From a virus (Duplodnaviria; Caudoviricetes): DNA of 53,655 nucleotides. Positions 2,949 to 53,655 of the stretch are shown here, in pieces. The DNA lies in IMG/VR virus record IMGVR_UViG_3300002855_000208, positions 1-53,655 of that record. The stretch is one strand, 5' to 3'. The translations under genes and the position numbers were made by a program. Numbering within the stretch: position 1 is the stretch's first letter; each line of letters starts with the position of its first letter. The notes below the pieces were generated by a model, which ran no database searches, was not told the origin of the DNA, and worked only from the letters and a program-made list of their open reading frames with translations.

Positions 2949-3662
2949 TTCTTCAATAAATAGTATTTTCTCGTTAACTTGCTCCAAAGTCTCTTTTTTA
3001 ATAAGTAAATTCGCGGCTTTTCGTTCTTCTATTTCTTTCAATCTTTTTGCTTCGTCAGCTTGGATTGACATTTCAACAATTTCTGGGTAAGGGTTAGAAT
3101 CGAATATTGCATTTCCGTTTGGATCTACATATTTCGTAAAATCTATATCGAATGATCCATACGAGATTTTATCTTGTCCCTGAAAGAAATTACGTTTAAT
3201 TTGCGCTAAAGTTTGGGCTGCTAATTCTGGATATGATTTTAATCCATCGGTATTAAGAAAATACTTTAATTCCCTCAATACTTCTCCGTTGGCAAATTCT
3301 ATTTTTTCTAAATAATATTCATCTACAATCTCAAACTGCCTATAATATTCAAGAAAGTCGACAAGGAATTTGGTTAACATAAAAATAATGTGATATCGAT
3401 GCGCTGCTCGAAGTTGATCTTGAACTTCAGGCGGCGCTTTTTCTATATGTCCGGCCAGTAATAACGATTCCGCATCACCCCCAGTAATTTCGGCCAATGC
3501 CCGGTTGAGTTCATCGGAAGCAGGTGGAGTCTTTCCATTCTGGAGTTTACTTAGGTATTGCTTTGTCGCTGATAGCTTATAACTTGAAAGTTTCTCTGAT
3601 ATTTCGTCAAGCGTAAGATTCGACTTCTTTATATAACTTTGCAGTAATTCGGAATAATTCAT
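2856..3662 (-). CDS. Immunity repressor (CI-like, XRE HTH)
   Basis: N-terminal HTH (YLSKLQNGK); divergent from Cro-like gene; no S24 peptidase motif recognised. Confidence 0.8.
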   Translation of the reverse strand: MNYSELLQSYIKKSNLTLDEISEKLSSYKLSATKQYLSKLQNGKTPPASDELNRALAEITGGDAESLLLAGHIEKAPPEVQDQLRAAHRYHIIFMLTKFLVDFLEYYRQFEIVDEYYLEKIEFANGEVLRELKYFLNTDGLKSYPELAAQTLAQIKRNFFQGQDKISYGSFDIDFTKYVDPNGNAIFDSNPYPEIVEMSIQADEAKRLKEIEERKAANLLIKKETLEQVNEKILFIEELENGLGIDITDPETRKKLKRAAKIAFIDED

Positions 3663-21750: not shown

Positions 21751-22153
21751 AGGGATACAGTAGAGTCAAATAGGGCAGACGCCCGGGCGACTCCGCTGTA
21801 TCCCTTATTACTTTGCGGACCCGGCCATGCGGTGGGAGAGTGTGCGGTCTCTCCTTAGGCGCCACCGATAAGGTGATCAGTCGCCGAGCGTGTGGAGATG
21901 GGAATGGGGTTCGAAGCCCCAAGTTTATCTTTTCTTCTCTGCGCCGGATCCATCCGTATTGGAGAAGAGGTGATAATCCTCTAAAATAAACCCCTCGACC
22001 GGCACGGTATGTATAGTGACGCATCATATCGGCGGGAGGTGGTCTATGAATGGAAGTCGAAGCGGTGAGCCTGCCGCAGAGAGCGGAAGCACATATTATA
22101 GGCAGCGGCTACAAACCGCAAAGCAGGATGGCTTAACGGCCATCCTTATTTTT
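21751..22153 (+). ncRNA. Candidate large structured non-coding RNA or late leader
   Basis: Many nested stems, no convincing ORF, ends in an intrinsic terminator. Confidence 0.5.
22125..22153 (+). terminator. Intrinsic terminator
   Basis: AGGATGGC-TTAACG-GCCATCCT followed by TATTTTT. Confidence 0.7.
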
Positions 22154-46448: not shown

Positions 46449-46805
46449 ATGCAAGCATATATCGATCAAATCGTGCAGGCCCTCGTTGGCCTGCTTGTTG
46501 TTTTTGTCTTGGGAGTTGTCGCTTCCCTGAGGGTGAAGGTCAATGTGTGGCTATCGTCCAAGACGAGCGCACAGCAGCGCGAAATCCTCCATAGGATCGC
46601 CGCTGAAGGGTTTGCGCTCGTAGAGGTCACATACAAACAGATGGACGGTCCGGCGAAGTTAAACAAGGCACTTAAATACGTGAGTGATCGCGCCATATCG
46701 TACGGGCTTGATTTTTCCATTGATACGATCCGGGCCGTAGTTGAAAAGGCAGTTCTCGAGTACAACGCCAAGGTAAAAGGGAGTGGCAAGGAGCTGGGTG
46801 AATGA
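46449..46805 (+). CDS. Holin (LL-H-like)
   Basis: AGGAGG RBS; N-terminal TM; GPAKLNKA...VEKAV. Confidence 0.8.
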   Translation: MQAYIDQIVQALVGLLVVFVLGVVASLRVKVNVWLSSKTSAQQREILHRIAAEGFALVEVTYKQMDGPAKLNKALKYVSDRAISYGLDFSIDTIRAVVEKAVLEYNAKVKGSGKELGE

Positions 46806-48385
46806 TTAAGCATACTCGCGTCCGAGTTAAAGATAAGAAGTTAGAGGAAGGGCCGCTACAATATAGCGGCTCTTTTTCAAAGTCCAACGGATGGACAGAC
46901 ATCAGGGTCTTGGATATTCCGCCCGTAGCCGTTATAAAAACCGAATTAGTAATTTCCAAGGGCAAATCAGCTTCATCCATTCTTGCCGATCTAGTAGCCA
47001 AGTACGGCGGAAACTGGGTTGTGTTTAATGCGTCGTATTTTAGCTCATCCGGTGACTTGATGGGAAAAACTTTTCAAAACGGCAAGGTCATATTCCAAGA
47101 CGTGGCAGGAAAGACAGAGCAGCGCCCTCATTTGTATCGAAAGGCTGGACGTTTCGGTGTTGGACGTCAAGGCGACCCTGCGGGGATCGATTGGGCTGTC
47201 GTAGGTGTTCCGACGCTAACGGCCGGAGGAAAGGCAATCAATCCACCAAGAGCAGAAGAAAAGACACCGCCAGACGTGCCGGGCGTTAACCCTCGCATGA
47301 TCGCCGGAATCAAAGCAGACGGAACGCTTGGCATTATTGCGGTGGATGGTCGAGGAAGCTCGGATCGGGGATTAACAACCGAGGAATCCGGTATTATGGC
47401 GATCTCTCTCGGTTATGCCGATTCGATAAATCTGGACGGTGGAGGATCCTCGACGATCGCCACAAATAATCGCCAGTTGCTCGATGCTCTCGAGATCGAC
47501 AAGACCAATAAAAAGCGCAATTATCATGTTAGCGACATAAGCCAAAATCAAGTTCAACGTATTATTCAACATGCCGTTGCGATTCAATTCGATCCGGCCG
47601 TTCTATTCCCTAAGCCGAATACGCTATTCGGGATTGATTGTGCCAACCCACTCAAAACGGTCACGGCAAAGGCGGTAGCTGCCGAAGGCGCTAAGTTTGC
47701 CGTTCGCTATTTGGTGCCGCCAGCTTATGCATGGAAGCGCCTCACGCGCCCGGAAGTCGACGCCATTCAAGGCGCCGGAATGAAGGTGGCTTCGGTCTTC
47801 CAAAAAGGCACTGATCGTGTAACGGGTGGAAAAAGTGCCGGTCAAGTGGATGGCCGGGAGGCTTTCGCCGAGGCAAAACTTATTAATCAGCCGCTCGGCA
47901 GCGCGATCTTCTTCGCAGTGGACTATGATGCACATCCGAAGGATTATGACGCTATAGAGGCTTACCTTCGCGCAGCTCAAGCGGAGATCCTGGGATATCA
48001 TGCCGGCGTATACGGTCATTATGCTGTAATCGAGGAAATGGCTAAACGTGAGGCATGCAAATACTTCTGGCAGACTTATGCTTGGTCTGGCGGCAAGAAG
48101 AGCGACAAGGCGCACTTGTACCAATACAAAAATGATACTAAACTCGGCGGTGTCTCCGTGGATTTCAACGAGGCTTACACTGAAGAGATTTTCTGGAATG
48201 AAAAGAAGGTGGAGCCGGTGGAGAAGTCAGCGAATAATGACGTAACCGCTATTGTATTTGGAAAGAAGATCGAAGGAGCAATCGTTATTGACGGCGTTAC
48301 GCTGCTACCTTTACGAGCTGTAGGGAATGCGATCGGCGGCAAGGTTACATGGGATCAGAAAACCATGACTGCAACAATCGAGTAA
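46802..48385 (+). CDS. Endolysin: phosphodiester glycosidase (NAGPA-like), DUF1906/GH25-like and C-terminal surface domain
   Basis: FNASYF, NPR, VDGR, NLDGGGSS; FAVRYL, FFAVDYD, GVYG, WQTYAWS; LPLRAVG...VTWD. Confidence 0.8.
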   Translation: MIKHTRVRVKDKKLEEGPLQYSGSFSKSNGWTDIRVLDIPPVAVIKTELVISKGKSASSILADLVAKYGGNWVVFNASYFSSSGDLMGKTFQNGKVIFQDVAGKTEQRPHLYRKAGRFGVGRQGDPAGIDWAVVGVPTLTAGGKAINPPRAEEKTPPDVPGVNPRMIAGIKADGTLGIIAVDGRGSSDRGLTTEESGIMAISLGYADSINLDGGGSSTIATNNRQLLDALEIDKTNKKRNYHVSDISQNQVQRIIQHAVAIQFDPAVLFPKPNTLFGIDCANPLKTVTAKAVAAEGAKFAVRYLVPPAYAWKRLTRPEVDAIQGAGMKVASVFQKGTDRVTGGKSAGQVDGREAFAEAKLINQPLGSAIFFAVDYDAHPKDYDAIEAYLRAAQAEILGYHAGVYGHYAVIEEMAKREACKYFWQTYAWSGGKKSDKAHLYQYKNDTKLGGVSVDFNEAYTEEIFWNEKKVEPVEKSANNDVTAIVFGKKIEGAIVIDGVTLLPLRAVGNAIGGKVTWDQKTMTATIE

Positions 48386-48482: not shown

Positions 48483-49163
48483 ATGGAGATGATAATTGTG
48501 GAAGATATCTCGTTTGCTGAAAAAGCCTTTAAGAATGACTTTCCAAATGATAGCCTCGTTCATCTGAAGACTGCTGTCAATCATGGTTACATACTTGCTA
48601 ACAAATGCATCGCTGACAATGACTTCTTGAAATCCGCTATAGGTAAAAGAGATTGGGCTAGGCTTCAGAATACTGCCGTGGAATTCGCCATTAAAGATAG
48701 GGCGGAACGGATGAATATTGAATTAAGAATTGAAGAAGCTAATAACATCCGAGGGAGTTTCCCACATTACAACTTCTTTTTGGGAAACTGTGTCTTCACG
48801 ACGAGCCGCACGGAATATTATGATGCGTTTCCAAGAGATGCAATGTTCCGGAGCATGAATAGTGCCTTAAATTCTCAAATTAAAATGATTCAAAACAGCG
48901 GAATCCTCGAAGTTGGAGTTGAGCAAGAAAATACCGAAAGATATTACGGGATTCTAACTTACGGCGGGCGCTATGATATTGAATTTATTCATTTTGGAAT
49001 TCCAAATAGCGAAATTAATAATTGGTTATATCAATGCAATATTGCAAAGTCAATTGTTTTAGCCGATCGTACTCTCGCAGAAAGAGAGAATATTGCGGCT
49101 TCCACTGTTGCAGCTGTTAAAGATCAGTTTTTAAAACGTCAGGAAGTGGCTAACGGTGAGTAA
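48483..49163 (+). CDS. Putative toxin/effector (RmrT-like position)
   Basis: AT-rich; overlaps downstream HTH-peptidase gene. Confidence 0.55.
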   Translation: MEMIIVEDISFAEKAFKNDFPNDSLVHLKTAVNHGYILANKCIADNDFLKSAIGKRDWARLQNTAVEFAIKDRAERMNIELRIEEANNIRGSFPHYNFFLGNCVFTTSRTEYYDAFPRDAMFRSMNSALNSQIKMIQNSGILEVGVEQENTERYYGILTYGGRYDIEFIHFGIPNSEINNWLYQCNIAKSIVLADRTLAERENIAASTVAAVKDQFLKRQEVANGE

Positions 49164-50340
49164 AATTGAAGAATTTAAAGGAAGTAAAAAGGGAACTAAC
49201 CACAAGAACGCTTTTATTCCGGAGAGACTTCGACAGGTAAGAATAGCGCTTGGCTATTCGACCATAGACTTTTCAGAAGACATTGGTGTTACGCGTCAAG
49301 CTCTAAATCAGTTCGAAACCAACAGAATAACTCCAAGTTACGAAACGCTCTTAAAGATAGAAAAAACGACTAATTTCCCAGTAGATTATTTTTTCAAACC
49401 AATCTTGCCCGTAAATGATGGACCATTCTTGTTTAGGGCGAATCGCACTTCTTTAAAGAAAACAAAAGAGTTTTCGAGGTTTATTGTCCAGCAAATGAAG
49501 GAAAGTTACGATTTCTTTTCTGAATATCTTGACTTTACTCCTGTGAACGTGCCTTTACTTGAGTTTGATGTGAATAGTTCGCTTGATGAAATTGAGGATA
49601 TCGCAGTGGCTTTACGGAAGCACTGGGGTCTAGGATTAGGTCCAATAAGTCATGTATACAGGCTTCTTGAGAATAATGGGATTATTATTTCCCAACTTGA
49701 CAAGCGTTTGGATAAAATAGATGCATTTTCACAGTGGAAAGATGGTAGACCGTTTGTCTTGGTTGGTTCACAAGAATTTACTGCATGTCGTCTGAGGCTT
49801 AATGCAATGCATGAATTTGGACACATACTGCTTCATACTGATGCTGAATACGAAGAAAGAGCAAATAAAGATGCCGAATTTTACGATGTTCTTGAAAGTC
49901 AGGCATTCCGTTTAGCCGGAGCCTTCATGTTTCCAAGAGAGTCTTTTCTTGACGAATTGTTTTCGACGTCGCTGCCCCATCTGATTGAGCTTAAACAACG
50001 ATGGGGAGTGTCCTTGGCATTTATAGTTAGACGTTGCAAGGAGCTCGAGATCATTTCTGATTCTAAGTACGAGACCTTAATGAGGCAAATAAAAAAGTTT
50101 GGGAAAATGGAACCCTTGGACGACAAAATTGAGAAGGAGCAACCGCGCGCATTGAATCAAGCTGCAAATCTATTGATGGAACACGGTGTTAAAACTCGTC
50201 AAGAAATATTAAGCGGCCATAAGCTTCCTCGGACGCTCGCTGAATCAATAATCGGTGTCGAACCAGGATTTTTTTCGGAGCATATCCCAGAAGAAAAAAT
50301 TGTTGAATTCCGATCAAAATCGCAAAATAAAGCTAATTGA
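49156..50340 (+). CDS. XRE-HTH fused to ImmA/IrrE Zn metallopeptidase (RmrA-like)
   Basis: HTH; LRKHWGLG; DAFS; HEFGH; E..A..LAGAF. Confidence 0.88.
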   Translation: MSKIEEFKGSKKGTNHKNAFIPERLRQVRIALGYSTIDFSEDIGVTRQALNQFETNRITPSYETLLKIEKTTNFPVDYFFKPILPVNDGPFLFRANRTSLKKTKEFSRFIVQQMKESYDFFSEYLDFTPVNVPLLEFDVNSSLDEIEDIAVALRKHWGLGLGPISHVYRLLENNGIIISQLDKRLDKIDAFSQWKDGRPFVLVGSQEFTACRLRLNAMHEFGHILLHTDAEYEERANKDAEFYDVLESQAFRLAGAFMFPRESFLDELFSTSLPHLIELKQRWGVSLAFIVRRCKELEIISDSKYETLMRQIKKFGKMEPLDDKIEKEQPRALNQAANLLMEHGVKTRQEILSGHKLPRTLAESIIGVEPGFFSEHIPEEKIVEFRSKSQNKAN

Positions 50341-50370
50341 AAGCGGAAGGCGTAAGCCTCCGCTTTTTTT
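50341..50370. terminator. Terminator between convergent genes
   Basis: AAGCGGAAGGC-GTAA-GCCTCCGCTT followed by T run. Confidence 0.75.
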
Positions 50371-51232
50371 ATACAATGAAGCCTACAAACTCTGGACTCC
50401 GCAGCATCCCCTTACGCGTCCAATTCCGGAACCGCACCCGCGCGTTTATCCTCGGCTCTAAATAAACGAAATCCCGATCTTCTCTAGAAACTAGGCTACG
50501 AGCGACGCCATAGAACGCCTGCTTATGTTTCAACGGAACCAATGTCGGATGTTCGAGAAGTCCGACCGGTCGACCCCGATGAGACAGCAGCCATCCAAAT
50601 TGATTTTTCCGGTATCCGGCAATTTGCACGACATCATAAGTGTAGTTAATAATTTTGATCCAGCTTGGGGCGCGACGACCGACATACCGACTCTTTTGTA
50701 GCTTGGCTACAATTCCCTCGAGTTTCTTTTCCTTGATCGCTTCGAACAATGCCACGCCAGTTCCAGGAACACTCAACACCGGGGAGAAGAATTTATTTGC
50801 CGATAGAACTTGCTGCAGGATCCGCTTGCGCTCCGTTAGCGGTAGAGGCCGCAAGTCACGTCCATTGTACCGCAGGATATCAAACACATAGTAATGGACC
50901 GGCTGCCGAACCATAGCTTGGCGTATAGCGAGCGGTTTCCGCTTCAAAAATCGCTCCATGACCAATTCAAACTCAATGGCCCCATCTTCATTTTGGCATG
51001 CGACTTCGCCGTCAAGCACAACGTCGGAACTGTCATCGATCGGAACGTCATGCAGCTCGGGATACTGCAGCGTCACGTCGTTATTGTGGCGTGTAAAAAG
51101 ACGGACCTGTCCGGCCTCCATCGATAAGATGAGGCGGTGTCCGTCTATTTTGGGTTCAAATATATACCGATCGTCATCGAAAGGATTCTCACGCTTTTCC
51201 AGGAGCATAGGAGGGAGGAACATTTCGCACAC
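50369..51232 (-). CDS. ATP-dependent DNA ligase (LigD ligase-domain type)
   Basis: EPKIDG, LDGE, FDIL, EGIVAK, WIKI, G.LR.P.F. Confidence 0.92.
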   Translation of the reverse strand: MCEMFLPPMLLEKRENPFDDDRYIFEPKIDGHRLILSMEAGQVRLFTRHNNDVTLQYPELHDVPIDDSSDVVLDGEVACQNEDGAIEFELVMERFLKRKPLAIRQAMVRQPVHYYVFDILRYNGRDLRPLPLTERKRILQQVLSANKFFSPVLSVPGTGVALFEAIKEKKLEGIVAKLQKSRYVGRRAPSWIKIINYTYDVVQIAGYRKNQFGWLLSHRGRPVGLLEHPTLVPLKHKQAFYGVARSLVSREDRDFVYLEPRINARVRFRNWTRKGMLRSPEFVGFIV

Positions 51233-51305
51233 CGTCCGTATATCTAAGCTGATATACTGATTGTATCATTCGGGTATGCATGACGAAGCCGGTAAGTAAT
51301 GGGAG

Positions 51306-51479
51306 TCAATCAATGATCCGCAGGGTAAACTTGTCCTTATAATAGTACATCCCGTCGTCGAGCTTGATTGTGTCTTTTGTATGCAGCAAGATCTTCCCGC
51401 GGCCGATAAGCTCTTCCTCGTCGTAAATCTCGACGGTTTTTCCGTACATAAATGCATGGTTAATCAATTGGACATCCAT
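51306..51479 (-). CDS. Small beta-rich protein
   Basis: GGAGG RBS before MDVQL. Confidence 0.6.
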   Translation of the reverse strand: MDVQLINHAFMYGKTVEIYDEEELIGRGKILLHTKDTIKLDDGMYYYKDKFTLRIID

Positions 51480-51565
51480 GAAGATCCTCCAAATTGCCAA
51501 GCGTTTGGGAATATCATATTGTCAAAGTGCATCTATGTAAAGGCCAGCCATGCACGGCCAGCTCG

Positions 51566-51640
51566 TGGCGGATATCCGCGACCATCCCGGCAGTAGCCGG
51601 TAGGTTTCGGCCTCCTCCGCAGGAGGCCATCGTCAGGCGG
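51566..51640 (-). ncRNA. Type I hammerhead ribozyme
   Basis: CCGC-CUGACGA-U-GGCCUCCU(GCGG)AGGAGGCC-GAAACC...CCGGC(UACU)GCCGG...GGUC-GCGG; complete core and three stems. Confidence 0.85.
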
Positions 51641-51806
51641 GTGTGTATGCTTCCAGTGCCTCAAGTGCTTGTTTGATTCGATTGATTTTTTCTTCGCCTG
51701 AACGATCCGACTCGATGATCGCTTCGATCACGCCGACCGTGTAATACGTCGCGGCAGTCTGATCCTCTTTAACGTCTCTTTGGAGTCTTTCCAGTAAATC
51801 ATTCAT
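51633..51806 (-). CDS. 57-aa protein whose stop codon lies in the ribozyme core
   Basis: GGGAGG upstream of MNDLLE; TGA is part of CUGACGA. Confidence 0.6.
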   Translation of the reverse strand: MNDLLERLQRDVKEDQTAATYYTVGVIEAIIESDRSGEEKINRIKQALEALEAYTPA

Positions 51807-51855
51807 ATCCTCTTTCCCTCCCATCGGGGGGAGACCCGAAGGTCTCCAGTTATTA

Positions 51856-52089
51856 TTAAGCAAGTTTCCGAGCCTGTGACCTGATCCGGATCATTTCCCA
51901 CTCACTGACGTGCACCAAATTTGCACCGAGTCCGATAAGAACTTCGTTAAGCGATTGAATGCGTTCTTCTGTCGTACTGCCATACGTCGACAGCTTGTGA
52001 ACTGATCCCGGATATTCTTTCGTTGGGAGAATCTCGTAACATACGTCCCTGCTTTCCTTGGCGTCCCAAATATAAACTTCCTTAGCCAT
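51856..52089 (-). CDS. Hypothetical protein
   Basis: GGGAGG RBS before MAKEVY. Confidence 0.6.
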   Translation of the reverse strand: MAKEVYIWDAKESRDVCYEILPTKEYPGSVHKLSTYGSTTEERIQSLNEVLIGLGANLVHVSEWEMIRIRSQARKLA

Positions 52090-52118
52090 CCTCATTACCT
52101 CCCTGCCCAATGGGCTGC

Positions 52119-52202
52119 TTATTTTCTCCTTGCGTTCCTAATCAGTGCCGCCATCGTGATGACCAACGCCGCGATGCTGATGACCATTGTCGCCATTTGC
52201 AT
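52119..52202 (-). CDS. 27-aa hydrophobic peptide (type I toxin-like)
   Basis: GAAAGGAG RBS; MQMATMVISIAALVITMAALIRNARRK. Confidence 0.65.
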   Translation of the reverse strand: MQMATMVISIAALVITMAALIRNARRK

Positions 52203-52297
52203 CCAATTTGCTCCTTTCGGATTCTTGATATATAAGATCGAATGGATTATGATGGGTAGTAAGAGGGGCCGCTTGCTCGCCCCGCTTACCGTGTGTG

Positions 52298-52438
52298 TTA
52301 GTTCTTCCAACGATGCAGGCCGTTCCCGCGGTCTGCATCTTTCATTTTCTTGAGTTCTCGCATCGTCCGGTAATTCACGATTGCGATGATCAAGTTAATG
52401 AAGGAAGTTACTAAGCCCATCAGTTGTTCCATTCGCAT
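52298..52438 (-). CDS. 46-aa single-TM peptide, not in ORF track
   Basis: GAAAGGAG RBS; MRMEQLMGLVTSFINLIIAIVNYRTMRELKKMKDADRGNGLHRWKN. Confidence 0.65.
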   Translation of the reverse strand: MRMEQLMGLVTSFINLIIAIVNYRTMRELKKMKDADRGNGLHRWKN

Positions 52439-52481
52439 TCTCCTTTCCGAAGGCGTGTCCTTAACCTTCTGATTTCATTAT

Positions 52482-52547
52482 ACAGCATTTTAAATGCTGT
52501 GTAAATAGGTGAATTATAAATATTGCAAAAGTATTTTTAATGCTGTA
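52482..52547. promoter_or_regulatory. Palindromic operators between divergent genes
   Basis: ACAGCATTT-T-AAATGCTGT at 52482-52500; partial second copy ending TAATGCTGTA near 52538-52547. Confidence 0.7.
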
Positions 52548-52575
52548 ATATTGAACTAAAGGAGGATGGTTTTCT

Positions 52576-52743
52576 ATGGCGGGTCGTCCTAAGAAGGCTG
52601 AGGAAGATAAGAAAATTCGCGAGGCGATATATTTTGAACCGGCATTACTTGAATGGCTTAAGGGAGTAGCTGATGGGGAAGGATGCACGGTCAGTGTCAT
52701 CGTAAATCGAATGGTAAAGAAAGCAAAAGAGCAGGAGGGGTAA
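52576..52743 (+). CDS. 55-aa ribbon-helix-helix regulator, not in ORF track
   Basis: AAGGAGG RBS; MAGRPKK...REAIYFEPALLEWLKGVADGEGCTVSVIVNRMV. Confidence 0.75.
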   Translation: MAGRPKKAEEDKKIREAIYFEPALLEWLKGVADGEGCTVSVIVNRMVKKAKEQEG

Positions 52744-52765
52744 CCCCGCTGCTTTTTTTGTTCGC

Positions 52766-52810
52766 TTGATAAGAACATAAGTTCGTATTATAATAACGAA
52801 CAAATGTTCC
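52766..52810 (+). promoter_or_regulatory. SigA promoter with two LexA boxes
   Basis: TTGATA-17 bp-TATAAT; GAACATAAGTTC at 52773 and CGAACAAATGTTCC at 52797. Confidence 0.88.
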
Positions 52811-52828
52811 TATTTGGAGGCAAACAGC

Positions 52829-52990
52829 ATGGAAGAGCTCTTAACGCTGTCGTATAATTTTAGCTTGCCGATCGTGCTTATTGTCGGCAACGCCAAAGTG
52901 GCCGGTATCGTTGAGCAACTGGACGACGATCACGCTAGGATCGCCGGTGAGTGGTATGCGATTGGAGACATAAAGGGGGTACCGCGATGA
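52829..52990 (+). CDS. 53-aa protein, not in ORF track
   Basis: GGAGG RBS; ATGA-coupled to next gene. Confidence 0.6.
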   Translation: MEELLTLSYNFSLPIVLIVGNAKVAGIVEQLDDDHARIAGEWYAIGDIKGVPR

Positions 52991-53373
52991 GCGTGCAGAC
53001 CACTGGGCGGATCACGATAGAAGAGCTCACCATGGTACGAGATTTCATTATGCTTCCGCATATGCTGACGATGTGTCAGAACAGTTTAGATGATCTACGT
53101 ATCTCCAGAAACCTATTTAAAGACCAGTTCGCCGGAATGGTGCAACTAATCATGGACGCAATAACGCGAGATTTGGCTCAACTTAGACGGGAGTTCTCAA
53201 AGCGTAAAATCAAAGTGTGGGACGATGGTGTGGTGGATGGGATTATCTATAGTAGATACAACTGCAGGGGCTACGAAGATCGTTTCGGAGTTGTCCGGGA
53301 GGCGCTCCGGTCGGAGATTAGCGTTAGGCTAAAGCAGTACGCGAGCGGCGTCATCATCAAGCCAACACATTAA
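52987..53373 (+). CDS. Conserved SOS-operon hypothetical protein
   Basis: ATG at 52987; Y.CRGY motif; upstream of YolD-like gene. Confidence 0.7.
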   Translation: MSVQTTGRITIEELTMVRDFIMLPHMLTMCQNSLDDLRISRNLFKDQFAGMVQLIMDAITRDLAQLRREFSKRKIKVWDDGVVDGIIYSRYNCRGYEDRFGVVREALRSEISVRLKQYASGVIIKPTH

Positions 53374-53388
53374 AAGGAGAGATATATC

Positions 53389-53655
53389 ATGCCGGCAGTA
53401 GCAAAGCCAAAGAAAGTAGCTAAAACTAAACGACCCACCCGTGATGAGTTTGAACTTGAGGAATTGGGTGAAGTGTTAGTTGAAGCGTTACGTGAAGAAA
53501 ATGAGGTCGCTTTAACTGTCTGGGGAGAAGAGGAACAAGTACGCGGGTGGATCCTGGAAATGAACGCTAGAACGAAACTCGTACATGTTGAGAAACACGG
53601 TGAAATAACTAAGGTGCCGTTTATGGATATAATGAAGGTAGGAAGCCCCGAGTGA
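53389..53655 (+). CDS. YolD-like protein
   Basis: KRPTRDEFELEE...VRGWI...VPFMDI; in LexA-boxed operon. Confidence 0.8.
   Translation: MPAVAKPKKVAKTKRPTRDEFELEELGEVLVEALREENEVALTVWGEEEQVRGWILEMNARTKLVHVEKHGEITKVPFMDIMKVGSPE

Follow-up and report, generated by a model that had tools for sequence, protein, structure and literature searches.

Organization of the locus

The DNA analyzed here, a stretch of 53,655 nucleotides from a virus record (the window), contains a small gene for a putative DNA-binding protein that diverges from a leftward operon of very small genes. A check of the sequence found in place every feature that a preliminary description had listed for this region. These features, together with those added in the present analysis, are as follows, in the direction of the leftward operon.

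52576 to 52743, plus strand: gene for a 55-aa ribbon-helix-helix (RHH) regulator
near 52730 to 52757: terminator of the RHH gene, a hairpin followed by TTTTTTT
52528 to 52546: operator candidate O2, an imperfect second site with 3 mismatches
52482 to 52500: operator candidate O1, a perfect 19-bp palindrome, ACAGCATTTAAAATGCTGT
52477 to 52505, minus strand: leftward promoter of the sigma-A type, TTTACA-17-TATAAT, 11/12 matches
52449 to 52469, minus strand: stem-loop GAAGG...CCUUC in the 5' UTR, immediately ahead of the peptide A Shine-Dalgarno sequence
52298 to 52432, minus strand: peptide A, 44 aa, with a hydrophobic N-terminal helix and a basic tail, a candidate type I toxin
52225 to 52351, plus strand: predicted gene for an antisense small RNA
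52312 to 52339, plus strand: antisense terminator hairpin of 12 pairs, then TTTCATTTTCTT
52265 to 52283: hairpin GGGGC/GCCCC, which with its GTAAG/CTTAC extension covers 52259 to 52289, the 5' hairpin of the predicted antisense RNA
52225 to 52253, plus strand: antisense promoter TTGATA-17-TATGAT, 10/12 matches, with a predicted start near 52260
52119 to 52202, minus strand: peptide B, a hydrophobic 27-aa peptide ending in a basic tail
51856 to 52089, minus strand: 77-aa ORF, variable cargo; the spacing of its ribosome-binding site favors the ATG at 52089
51830 to 51847, minus strand: hairpin between cistrons, GGAGACC-UUCG-GGUCUCC
51633 to 51806, minus strand: 57-aa ORF, variable cargo
51560 to 51644, minus strand: type I hammerhead, core 51640 to 51576, stem I CCGC/GCGG
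51629 to 51609, minus strand: hammerhead stem II; stem III has an internal loop, and cleavage is predicted after C 51580
51513 to 51579, minus strand: conserved 3' extension of the hammerhead
50369 to 51479, minus strand: downstream genes, for a second 57-aa protein (51479 to 51306) and an ATP-dependent DNA ligase (51232 to 50369)

Distribution of the cassette

We found peptide A in 50 of 401 Paenibacillaceae genomes (∼12% of the sampled species, about one in eight). A tblastn search of 50,697 phage records with the relative from locus L100 as the query recovered it in 13 records of Paenibacillus larvae phages; the matches in this collection were limited to Paenibacillus phages, and the window's own peptide A had no tblastn match there. 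The same cassette is present in phages Dragolir and Yyerffej.

The relative positioning of the genes was evaluated in 30 fetched peptide-A loci, including 3 that had contributed to the query alignment. All 30 have a divergent regulator gene 88 to 191 nt upstream of peptide A, peptide B is found downstream of peptide A in 27/30, and this trio is kept while everything downstream is swapped; a hammerhead accompanies 7/30. The preliminary description had proposed a recurring module composed of the regulator, the two peptides, the 77-aa and 57-aa proteins, and the ribozyme. The co-occurrence check, run in Paenibacillaceae and phages, upholds the part concerning the regulator and the two hydrophobic peptides, which do recur together in other genomes, and removes the hammerhead and the two small proteins from it. 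Both ORFs are present in the window and neither is conserved, since no relative was seen in any related locus: a phmmer search of 1.84 billion representatives with the 77-aa protein returned the protein itself and two weak repeat-type hits, we found no relative of it in the genome or viral contigs, no match in Pfam, NCBIfam, PHROGs, or PADLOC, and no usable match in the Atlas, and the 57-aa ORF ending at 51633 had no relatives in the fetched loci. The hairpin that the preliminary description placed between these two ORFs was confirmed at 51830 to 51847, and the syntenic copy in Cohnella (L001) has a counterpart, GGAGCCC-UUCG-GGGCUCC, that differs by one compensatory pair and separates two small ORFs not homologous to those of the window. 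Judging from these comparisons, the conserved unit consists of a small regulator gene and the genes for peptides A and B, followed by small ORFs that vary.

In temperate phages, the cassette is located in accessory regions, between lysis or toxin genes and the integrase, and in complete phages it is a small insert, with their own integrase and switch regions elsewhere. A RosmerTA defense pair adjoins it in the window (PADLOC). Two other Cohnella species preserve the order ligase, cassette, SOS operon and lack RosmerTA and endolysin genes beside the ligase, and for this reason the cassette may lie outside the prophage proper. A blastn search with positions 50300 to 53655 gave no match among phages and, among plasmids, matched a fragment of the ligase only.

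Regulator gene and candidate operators

The preliminary description had proposed an unlisted 55-aa RHH gene; the ORF was confirmed at 52576 to 52743 on the plus strand, and a structure model backs the RHH fold. The Pfam model RHH_5 matched the protein weakly and under the cut-off (E 0.019; 15.2 bits versus 26), and a profile search of PDB sequences with the RHH profile gave AvtR at an E value of 0.33 plus an endoplasmin match that looks like chance. The monomer model has an extended N terminus followed by helices at residues 22 to 35 and 39 to 54. Its best Foldseek matches were Arc, CopG, ParG, and MatP (probability 0.9 to 0.99, E values of at least 0.056), and PutA RHH domains were also among the top matches, with TM scores up to 0.84 by target. 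In the homodimer model, residues 14 to 20 of both copies pair across the interface, with a score of 0.56 versus 0.00 for the best of 3 controls; in the calibration, the mark used here was reached by 20/30 proteins whose solved structures pair two copies of one chain and by 1/23 solved as single chains. The runs agreed in at least 96% of contacts, with a partner pLDDT of at least 75. As RHH dimers are among the solved structures, passing the mark may reflect no more than likeness to them. The model places the 55-aa protein among beta-alpha-alpha folds that dimerize through an antiparallel ribbon. RHH homologues occupy the same position in loci L172, L187, and L195. Across the 30 loci, the regulator is a Cro/C1-type helix-turn-helix (HTH) protein in 22 (Pfam), and the remaining 8 are RHH-like by eye.

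The perfect 19-bp palindrome reported between the RHH gene and the leftward unit was confirmed at 52482 to 52500. O1 is the sole full copy in the window, where 0.01 would be expected by chance, and it lies between the -35 (TTTACA) and -10 (TATAAT) elements of the leftward promoter. In the three other loci with this RHH type, AGCATTT(T/A)AAATGCT is conserved at the equivalent place in the promoter; in Arc-type loci, that place is taken by TATACTGGTACCAGTATA, and the palindrome type tracks the regulator type in 9 loci. Since it sits inside the promoter and changes with the type of regulator, the palindrome behaves as an operator in these comparisons. The second site, O2, overlaps another leftward promoter-like site (52540 to 52513) and the region where the promoter of the RHH gene itself must lie; L172, L187, and L195 have an equivalent second site.

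Peptides A and B

The preliminary description had noted two hydrophobic peptides with basic tails and a shared ribosome-binding sequence. Both are present and both are preceded by GAAAGGAG, with a correction to the length of the first: the ATG at 52438 is located only 1 nt past the GGAG, while that at 52432 has a 7-nt spacing, so peptide A likely starts at 52432 and has 44 aa, not 46. The stem-loop in front of its Shine-Dalgarno sequence has equivalents by eye, built from different stems, in L001 (GAAGGUG/CACCUUC) and L100 (GGAAGUU/AACUUCC). Peptide A is 98% identical in Cohnella cholangitidis, and peptide B has 26 to 32 aa and one hydrophobic segment across loci. The spacer between them is 80 to 130 nt long, and the other gene junctions are tight. 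Peptides of this size are too short for ordinary gene callers.

The maximum hydropathy over 15 residues is 2.3 for peptide A and 2.8 for peptide B. With their basic tails, both are predicted to be small, hydrophobic, membrane-directed peptides, as type I toxins are. Searches of Pfam, NCBIfam, PHROGs, and PADLOC gave no family match for either, and all 17 database relatives were named "hypothetical protein" or unnamed. Two other roles were considered. Arbitrium-like peptide signaling is unlikely, as peptide A has no signal-peptide-like N terminus and the 394-aa HTH protein matches RmrA; a two-peptide bacteriocin is unlikely, as there is no leader and no transporter.

A predicted antisense RNA at the 3' end of peptide A

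In 29/30 loci, the strand opposite the peptide A gene carries a terminator-like hairpin followed by a T-run within the 3'-terminal part of that gene; sense-strand terminators were seen in 1/30. A -10-like box, mostly TGTTAAGAT, is present on the antisense strand at a fixed distance in 28/30 loci. We therefore predict an antisense RNA of ∼90 nt that overlaps the last ∼17 codons of peptide A, as in yonT-yoyJ/SR6 of Bacillus subtilis. A simple terminator scanner with a limit on loop size detected the antisense terminator of L100, gave a weak signal for that of L109, and missed those of L077 and L093, whose loops exceed that limit. The antisense strand folds more stably in 26/29 loci (177 versus 54 G-U pairs), an asymmetry that could partly reflect composition rather than selection because lysine codons in the basic tail supply the T-run of the terminator.

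The terminator and -10 layout predicted for peptide-A loci is new in this analysis. The preliminary description had seen the GGGGC...GCCCC hairpin between the two peptides, in an operon taken to be RNA-processed; the hairpin is there and is more likely part of the antisense RNA than an element that processes the sense transcript. The likeness to type I toxins that had been suggested is strengthened by this predicted gene, which had been missed.

Hammerhead ribozyme

On the minus strand, positions 51636 to 51580 read CUGACGA-(U)-stem II-GAAA-stem III-GUC, which is the conserved hammerhead core with one extra U after A9; 40/91 relatives have the same extra base. The core agrees with the consensus C3-U4-G5-A6-N7-G8-A9 and G12-A13-A14, with the A15.1-U16.1 pair and with H17 at the cleavage site. 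As expected of a type I hammerhead, stem I holds the open 5' and 3' ends, and stems II and III are closed. Stems II and III appear in both the minimum free energy and centroid folds of the window sequence. Rfam scans of the window at the gathering score, and of 1.8 kb and 131 bases of it at an E value of 10 or less, gave no hammerhead, and the syntenic copy in L001 matched Hammerhead_1 (RF00163) with 30.1 bits (E 6.5e-6), under the gathering threshold of 34 bits. Because the scans gave no hammerhead, we built our own covariance model, R1, from 91 relatives that excluded the window. The search pattern used to gather these came from the window and L001, and sequences with fewer than 3 pairs in any stem were filtered out beforehand, so that the invariant core and part of the pairing are present by construction in the model that scores the window at 51.5 bits (E 4.7e-11; the sole hit in the window) and L001, also outside the training set, at 50.5 bits. 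Pairing, partly built in as stated, is seen in 93.6% of cells in the 91 relatives versus 71.3% in shuffles. Cells with a double change number 322 versus 98 ± 7.7 in shuffles, and none of 500 shuffles reached 322. Changes on both sides affect 10 of the 17 pairs, with covariation in the three helices; among the five stem I pairs, variation is limited to the outermost (column 4 with 83), and the CCGC/GCGG pairs are uninformative because they were fixed by the search pattern. Stems II and III differ wholly between the window and L001, yet remain paired. In addition, the loop II sequence GCGG (51620 to 51617) can pair with CCGC in the 3' tail (51571 to 51568), as it can in L001, and a loop II-tail helix of at least 4 bp was present in silico in 54% of the 91 relatives versus 21% with permuted tails (maximum 35% in 500 permutations). 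Score and covariation indicate that the window hammerhead is genuine.

The UGA stop codon of the 57-aa ORF (51635 to 51633) coincides with U4-G5-A6 of the hammerhead core. Cleavage would leave downstream a conserved extension of ∼65 nt, composed of a 5'-terminal hairpin GCGGAUAUCCGC, CACGAG, a second hairpin, and then UUUACAUAGAU...CUUUGACAA, which overlaps a promoter-like site (51541 to 51513). The preliminary description had regarded the ribozyme as the end of the unit. Because the downstream 57-aa gene and the ligase (Pfam DNA_ligase_A_M, 2.5e-29) are on the same strand and no minus-strand terminator is predicted between them and the ribozyme, the hammerhead is probably located between cistrons; the two genes may be co-transcribed with the operon, as we infer from this arrangement, and then released by the ribozyme. 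Nor does the hammerhead define the module, as had been thought: besides its low frequency at peptide-A loci, peptide A is upstream in just 3/30 hammerhead loci of this class in the family, and bona fide phages carry the cassette without it. On these comparisons, the hammerhead is a generic phage element placed between cistrons at stop codons and is not specific to the module.

Other assignments for this element were rejected. An intrinsic terminator formed by the stem II hairpin was set aside because no U-run follows stem II on either strand, and a type III hammerhead because the order of the elements does not fit. A link to the "drum" RNA motif as an element downstream of hammerheads was dropped; such a placement is not described in the available text of PMC5737381, and Rfam gave no drum match.

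Relationship to known systems

In the accessible text of PMC5848175 and PMC6562991, the prophage-borne yonT gene is on a polycistronic mRNA, the toxin genes of this type of Bacillus system have no terminators after them, so that the transcripts are processed, and SR6 is an RNA of ∼100 nt with an extended -10 box that overlaps the yonT 3' end by ∼65 nt. The cassette shares with yonT-yoyJ/SR6 (and with txpA/RatA, bsrG/SR4, and bsrE/SR5) a prophage location and a toxin, here a candidate, that is shorter than 60 aa and combines a transmembrane segment with a basic tail. With yonT-yoyJ/SR6 as described there, it further shares a polycistronic mRNA on which the toxin gene is followed by another gene for a small membrane protein, toxin genes that no terminator follows, and, as a prediction here, a promoter in the spacer with an extended -10 box for an antisense RNA of ∼100 nt over the toxin 3' end. 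The two have no detectable sequence similarity. They differ as well in that YoyJ has 83 aa and two hydrophobic segments, whereas peptide B is much shorter and has one, and in that SR6 reaches the yoyJ ribosome site, whereas the predicted antisense RNA stops short of that of peptide B. Each cassette locus also has a divergent repressor gene of its own, the predicted operator of which lies within the toxin promoter, and about a quarter add a hammerhead. To our knowledge, a dedicated protein repressor is not usual in type I systems. The SOS-controlled E. coli toxins tisB, dinQ, and symE, as presented in the accessible part of PMC6562991, likewise combine an antisense RNA with a repressor operator that overlaps the toxin promoter, but their repressor is the global LexA, whereas the cassette has its own small RHH or Cro/C1-type regulator and operator type.

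Arc/Mnt repressors act on a palindromic operator within a promoter. The 55-aa protein resembles Arc/Mnt and CopG in size, in the beta-alpha-alpha fold and antiparallel ribbon dimer of the model, and in the palindromic operator candidate within the promoter; it differs in scoring below the cut-off of the Pfam RHH models, and its DNA binding is a prediction.

In prophage-associated bacterial hammerheads, a pseudoknot that joins stems I and II replaces the loop-loop contacts, and such ribozymes were proposed to divide the long transcripts of phages into smaller mRNAs (Perreault et al. 2011, PMC3088659); the available text of PMC6765202 still describes their role in bacteria as open. The window hammerhead has the type I topology, canonical core, predicted pseudoknot, and intergenic position in phage operons of this group (PMC3088659; RF00163) and differs by the extra U after A9, by a long stem III with an internal loop, and by falling below Rfam detection. 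It additionally starts on the stop codon of the upstream ORF and carries the conserved 3' extension, two properties for which we found no description in the available text of PMC3088659.

Proposed function and alternative explanations

The anatomy of the region, the co-occurrence of regulator and peptides, the covariation of regulator and operator, and the structure of the hammerhead are read from the sequence and its comparison, and from them we infer a scheme that includes repression by the RHH protein, an acting antisense RNA, toxic peptides, and in vivo cleavage with its consequences. We propose that the dimeric RHH protein would bind the palindrome inside the leftward promoter and, more weakly, the second site, holding the operon down, and it probably also regulates its own gene. 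The operon would begin with membrane peptide A, followed by peptide B. A promoter in the spacer between them would drive the antisense RNA, ending at the terminator within the last codons of peptide A, and pairing of this RNA with the 3' portion of the peptide-A message would bring about the decay of that message, as in Bacillus subtilis yonT-yoyJ/SR6. The hammerhead would cut directly after the last small ORF, whose stop codon is in the catalytic core. The upstream message would then end in stems II and III with a cyclic phosphate, and the downstream RNA, once released, would begin with a 5'-OH hairpin and comprise the conserved extension along with the genes for the 57-aa protein and the ligase. 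The interpretation that we consider probable is that of a type I toxin-antitoxin-like cassette that is gated by a repressor and belongs to phages and prophage-like islands of the Paenibacillaceae, carrying in this instance a generic phage hammerhead. The cassette looks like an undescribed relative of the prophage type I toxin-antitoxin systems.

The placement of the cassette in temperate-phage accessory regions, in the window beside the RosmerTA pair, could also suit non-toxic phage membrane proteins that serve in superinfection exclusion or in membrane or lysis tuning. The peptides would then be part of a repressor-controlled accessory operon, and the hairpins after peptide A would stabilize or process the sense strand, with no antisense RNA. 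The peptides have no sequence similarity to known type I toxins, and a protein regulator, present in all loci, could suffice as control. However, the hairpins have no downstream U-run on the sense strand and do have one on the antisense strand in 29/30 loci, the -10-like box keeps its distance in 28/30, the spacer after peptide A is long while the other junctions are tight, and the geometry matches characterized Bacillus type I systems as far as these are described in the sources cited above. We hold this explanation to be unlikely, if still plausible.

A different origin is suggested by the hammerheads of this class, most of which (27/30 loci) are found in phage-like operons without the peptides, some of these operons starting beside Cro/C1-type regulators (L095, L106, L148, L159), by a serine recombinase next to the regulator in L100, and by L057, where an Arc-like RHH gene faces an 82-aa gene and a hammerhead with no peptides. 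The regulator and leftward operon might accordingly be the immunity switch and early operon of a degenerate or satellite element, with the peptides as incidental early genes and the hammerhead merely processing an early polycistronic transcript. The persistence of the regulator, peptide A, and peptide B trio amid exchanged downstream genes speaks against this, as does the presence of the cassette as a small insert in complete phages with separate integrase and switch regions, and we regard it as quite improbable. A mere coincidence of unrelated features, or of ORFs and hairpins that arose by chance, might be argued from the lack of relatives of the 77-aa and 57-aa ORFs and from the shortness of the peptides; it is already contradicted by the comparative data, namely, the co-occurrence counts, the regulator-operator covariation, and the score and covariation of the hammerhead, and we give it hardly any credence.

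The type I-like cassette might also be read more ambitiously, as a toxic or exclusion cassette of Paenibacillaceae phages with three cooperating layers: a private repressor, an antisense RNA, and the ribozyme. Ribosomes terminating at the stop codon would switch the hammerhead, and its cleavage would both determine how long the toxin message lasts and release a conserved small RNA of ∼65 nt with a 5'-OH end and a function of its own (hairpin, CACGAG, hairpin, UUUACAUAUAUUGUUCUUUGA). We find this extension rather doubtful.

Implications

The peptide families and the predicted antisense RNA are unannotated or labeled "hypothetical," and they would represent a new family if the cassette is a type I toxin-antitoxin system. 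Such a system would have an extra layer of control, a private repressor whose operator type is swapped along with the regulator, and its carriers include phages of the honeybee pathogen Paenibacillus larvae. The role of bacterial hammerheads has been open since 2011, going by the available text of PMC3088659 and PMC6765202, and the cassette offers a compact 1.3-kb context for a test, in which a ribozyme-dead mutant should give a readable phenotype in the level of the toxin message or in the expression of the downstream gene. The recurring placement of the ribozyme at a stop codon and its conserved 3' extension provide concrete mechanistic leads, and the three-layer reading, if true, would give bacterial hammerheads their first defined biological role.

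A recurrent two-peptide cassette with a divergent regulator

All the features that the preliminary description had listed for the cassette (a divergent ribbon-helix-helix [RHH] gene, a palindrome, two hydrophobic peptides with basic tails, hairpins, 77-aa and 57-aa ORFs, and a hammerhead) were found in the sequence, with the hairpins and both small ORFs as it had drawn them. The Shine-Dalgarno motif GAAAGGAG indeed precedes both peptides, but its spacing favors ATG 52432 over 52438 as the first start, which gives 44 aa rather than 46.

Elements of the cassette:
52576-52743 (+), 55-aa RHH regulator
52528-52546, second palindrome site, with 3 mismatches
52482-52500, 19-bp palindrome, filling the spacer of the leftward peptide-A promoter TTTACA-17-TATAAT
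52298-52432 (-), peptide A, 44 aa
52312-52339 (+), 12-pair hairpin, then TTTCATTTTC, inside the last peptide-A codons
52259-52289 (+), GGGGC/GCCCC hairpin
52225-52253 (+), predicted antisense promoter TTGATA-17-TATGAT, in the spacer after peptide A
52119-52202 (-), peptide B, 27 aa

Pattern-derived loci from Cohnella cholangitidis, C. silvisoli, Paenibacillus popilliae, P. contaminans, and Paenibacillus sp. y28 share a common layout, in which a divergent small regulator is followed by a 27- to 44-aa hydrophobic, basic-tailed peptide, a 26- to 29-aa hydrophobic peptide, one or two unrelated ORFs, and a hammerhead. Both peptides could be aligned as families (A2 for peptide A and A3 for peptide B). 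A peptide-A profile retrieved from the protein databases only 17 proteins, from Paenibacillus or unnamed, all annotated as hypothetical and none with a Pfam domain; a six-frame search found the peptide in 50 of 401 genomes of the family, with up to six copies per genome, and tblastn gave matches in 13 P. larvae phage records. The copies in phages Dragolir and Yyerffej face a Cro/C1-type regulator and lie between the toxin/lysis region and the integrase, with peptide B present yet unannotated (3192-3290 in the Dragolir locus, L164) and no hammerhead, the best score of our hammerhead covariance model (R1) being 7 bits. A 28- to 53-aa "putative holin-like toxin" is annotated beyond the same HTH regulator in L164 and L165.

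We then fetched 30 peptide-A genome loci, including 3 that had supplied sequences to the query alignment. All 30 have a regulator ORF in divergent orientation 88 to 191 nt upstream of peptide A. Peptide B was encoded downstream of peptide A, in the same orientation, in 27 loci (25 at E < 0.001); of the remaining three, one is truncated by a contig end. The expected synteny thus held for the regulator and the peptides, but a hammerhead of at least 42 bits was present in only 7/30 loci (4 of them new). A hammerhead within 1.5 kb in 7 of 30 loci is far above chance, at a family density of about one per 25 Mb, and the ribozyme is an optional part of the cassette. The 77-aa and 57-aa proteins are not conserved in the module, with no counterpart in any related locus or in the databases searched.

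Regulator and operator

Pfam assigned 22 of the 30 regulators to the Cro/C1-type HTH proteins; by eye, the other eight are five Arc-like proteins and three homologues of the window 55-aa protein (57 to 75% identity). The 55-aa protein itself fell below the cutoff of the Pfam RHH models. Its structure model, an extended segment and two helices, matched Arc, CopG, ParG, and other RHH proteins with probabilities of 0.9 to 0.99 but E values of at least 0.056. The homodimer prediction scored 0.56 versus 0.00 for the best of three controls (contacts agreeing at 96% or more between runs; pLDDT of at least 75), at a mark reached in calibration by 20/30 proteins solved as pairs of one chain and 1/23 solved as single chains, and residues 14 to 20 of both copies form an antiparallel ribbon in the model. 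Because RHH dimers have already been solved, this score would indicate likeness to RHH dimers and is not proof of binding.

The 19-bp palindrome is perfect, as originally noted, and is the sole full copy in the window, versus 0.01 expected by chance. In the loci with a window-type regulator, AGCATTT(T/A)AAATGCT always lies between the -35 and -10 boxes, with a second site upstream. The same promoter position holds TATACTGGTACCAGTATA or a close variant in four of the Arc-like loci and TATATACTCACGTGAGTATATA in the fifth (L173). That the operator covaries with the regulator is the strongest evidence at hand for regulator binding at the palindrome, and we propose that the RHH protein would act there as a repressor.

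A predicted antisense RNA

The antisense layout of the window, namely, a -10-like box, a GC-rich hairpin, and a hairpin with a T-run, is the same in six sequence-diverse cassettes and in the two phages, the box often being TGTTAAGAT, an extended -10. Among the 30 peptide-A loci, the -10-like box was found in 28 and the terminator-like element in 29, the exception being cut by a contig end, and the same criteria yielded a sense-strand terminator in a single locus. In 26 of 29 distinct loci, the antisense fold of a 130-nt segment was more stable than the sense fold (mean difference, 6.4 kcal/mol; 177 G-U pairs antisense versus 54 sense), a comparison in which the T-run is also the complement of lysine codons and a U-rich strand tends toward better folding anyway. 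With a simple terminator scanner, confirmation of the antisense terminator was limited to the window, L100, and L109, the last with a weak signal. These elements point to an antisense RNA as a candidate component of the cassette.

Structure of the hammerhead

On the minus strand, the window hammerhead reads CCGC-CUGACGA-U-(8-bp stem II, loop GCGG)-GAAA-(stem III with internal loop)-GUC-GCGG. Rfam did not match it at the gathering threshold, nor with the limit relaxed to E ≤ 10, even when the query was only 131 bases. The syntenic copy in C. cholangitidis (L001) keeps the core, with both closed stems swapped for different, still complementary sequence, and scored 30.1 bits against Hammerhead_1 (E = 6.5e-6; gathering score, 34). 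A pattern from these two copies, run on public genomes, gave more than 120 stretches among the matches listed, with 4- to 5-copy arrays in Clostridiales contigs and others in cyanobacteria and Paenibacillaceae. R1 was built from 91 of 146 distinct flanked matches, those with three or more closing pairs in each of the two stems; the 55 excluded included chance matches in coding DNA and also true bulged copies such as L001.

Paired cells made up 93.6% of the 91-sequence alignment versus 71.3% in shuffles (32 to 43% in slid registers), and double-change cells numbered 322 versus 98 ± 7.7, a value reached by 0/500 shuffles; the prefilter and the fixed pattern artificially raise the pairing figure close to the core, and covariation further out is independent of both. 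R1 scored 51.5 bits (E = 4.7e-11) on the window hammerhead, its sole match there, and 50.5 bits on that of L001, both lying outside the training set. The extra U after A9 is common to 40/91 relatives. Loop II (GCGG) could form a pseudoknot with a CCGC eight bases 3' of the predicted cleavage site, and 54% of the 91 relatives have a loop-tail helix of 4 bp or more, versus 21% with permuted tails. Comparative evidence thus argues strongly for the window hammerhead, which would be expected to cleave. It belongs to the pseudoknotted, prophage-associated class of Perreault et al., who suggested that these ribozymes process long phage transcripts and regarded the role as open (PMC3088659); in a 2019 review, the role of bacterial hammerheads is still undefined (PMC6765202).

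Placement of the hammerhead between cistrons

R1 gave 37 matches in 24/151 sampled Paenibacillaceae genomes, from which 30 hammerhead loci were analyzed for placement. An ORF ended within 60 nt before, or inside, the ribozyme start in 24 of the 30; in 6 of these, as in the window, the ORF stops at the UGA within the CUGA core, and in 11 more the ORF end fell within -1 to +3 nt of the first model position. The next ORF began within 200 nt downstream in 21/30 loci, and peptide A lay upstream in only 3/30. From these positions we conclude that the hammerhead is a generic element between cistrons, at stop codons. The preliminary description had placed the ribozyme at the end of the unit; it is probably internal to a longer transcript, since a 57-aa gene (51306-51479) and the DNA ligase gene follow and no terminator was predicted between them. 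The UGA-in-CUGA stop codon was seen at 51633-51635 in the window and in L199, L200, L204, L210, L212, L223, L095, L127, and L148, and the ORF stops only a few bases from stem I in many further loci. Such placement suggests that terminating ribosomes may be coupled to ribozyme folding.

A conserved extension of ∼65 nt lies 3' of some hammerheads, at 51513-51579 (-) in the window and also in L001, L057, L109, L047, L173-L175, L185, L198, L210, and L220. The new 5' end forms the hairpin GCGG-NNNN-CCGC, which is followed by CACGAG, by another hairpin that contains G-U pairs only on the hammerhead strand, and by UUUACAUAUAUUG(U/C)UCUUUGA(A/U/C)AA. Found in Cohnella, Paenibacillus, and Desulfosporosinus, it follows most peptide-A-linked hammerheads and a minority of the others; it might act as a weak terminator, as a promoter, or as a small RNA released by the ribozyme. 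In the Cohnella lubricantis locus L057 (oriented 1986-2607), the gene for an Arc-like RHH protein lies opposite an 82-aa gene that ends at the hammerhead; peptides A and B are both absent, and the locus adjoins the 128-aa and YolD operon that is also seen in the window.

Prophage setting

The window record (53.6 kb) is a Cohnella-type prophage with SbcC-like, DnaB-like, large terminase, portal, and tape measure genes.

Neighbors and landmarks:
1-1476, serine integrase
46802-48385, endolysin
48483-49163 (+), RmrT of a RosmerTA pair, 226 aa (PADLOC, 1.6e-26)
49156-50340 (+), RmrA of the pair, 394-aa HTH protein (PADLOC, 5.7e-108)
50369-51232 (-), ATP-dependent DNA ligase
52766-53655 (+), operon: 53-aa ORF, 128-aa protein (phrog_34234), YolD-like protein (Pfam, 1.7e-10)
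52773-52809, two LexA-type boxes carried by the operon promoter TTGATA-17-TATAAT

The RosmerTA anti-phage defense pair lies directly 3' of the endolysin (48483-50340, +); PHROGs labels the RmrA match merely "transcriptional regulator." The 57-aa protein at 51306-51479 (-), encoded immediately upstream of the ligase, gave a weak PUA-like match in Pfam and is kept together with the ligase in Cohnella phaseoli (L004, 5326-5490; 56% identity). An epsC (EAR) RNA match at 21786-21920 (+), upstream of the packaging genes, scored 48.7 bits (E = 3.1e-5), above the Rfam gathering score. This RNA class has a role in processive antitermination, and the window copy may have one in late transcription.

The cassette lies just past RosmerTA, flanked by the ligase (-) and the plus-strand operon. 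The LexA-type boxes at the operon start, CGAACTTATGTTC (minus-strand reading) and CGAACAAATGTTC, are the same in L001, and the operon looks like an SOS-controlled yolD-type operon cut by the record end. The window ligase is 76% identical to that of C. cholangitidis. Because C. cholangitidis (L001) and C. silvisoli (L093), where neither RosmerTA nor the endolysin adjoins the ligase, retain the order ligase-cassette-SOS operon, the cassette may belong to a conserved prophage-border island instead of being cargo of the window prophage.

Relation to type I systems

Among the article texts searched, none connected hammerheads to type I toxin-antitoxin systems or reported the cassette. The geometry of the cassette, as predicted here, matches that of Bacillus subtilis type I systems, above all SPβ yonT-yoyJ/SR6. 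In that system (PMC5848175; PMC6562991), a toxin of <60 aa shares its polycistronic mRNA with the gene for a second membrane protein, which lies downstream; SR6 is an antisense RNA of ∼100 nt with an extended -10 promoter and an overlap of ∼65 nt with the toxin 3' end; and the toxin genes have no terminators downstream, with decay being RNase III dependent. By this likeness, the peptides would be toxic. The sequence and its comparison establish the anatomy, the co-occurrence of the parts, the regulator-operator match, and the ribozyme structure; repression, the antisense RNA, toxicity, and cleavage are inferred. The cassette is most likely a repressor-gated, type I toxin-antitoxin-like two-peptide unit, mobile among Paenibacillaceae phages and islands, which in the window would be separated from the downstream genes by a generic phage hammerhead.
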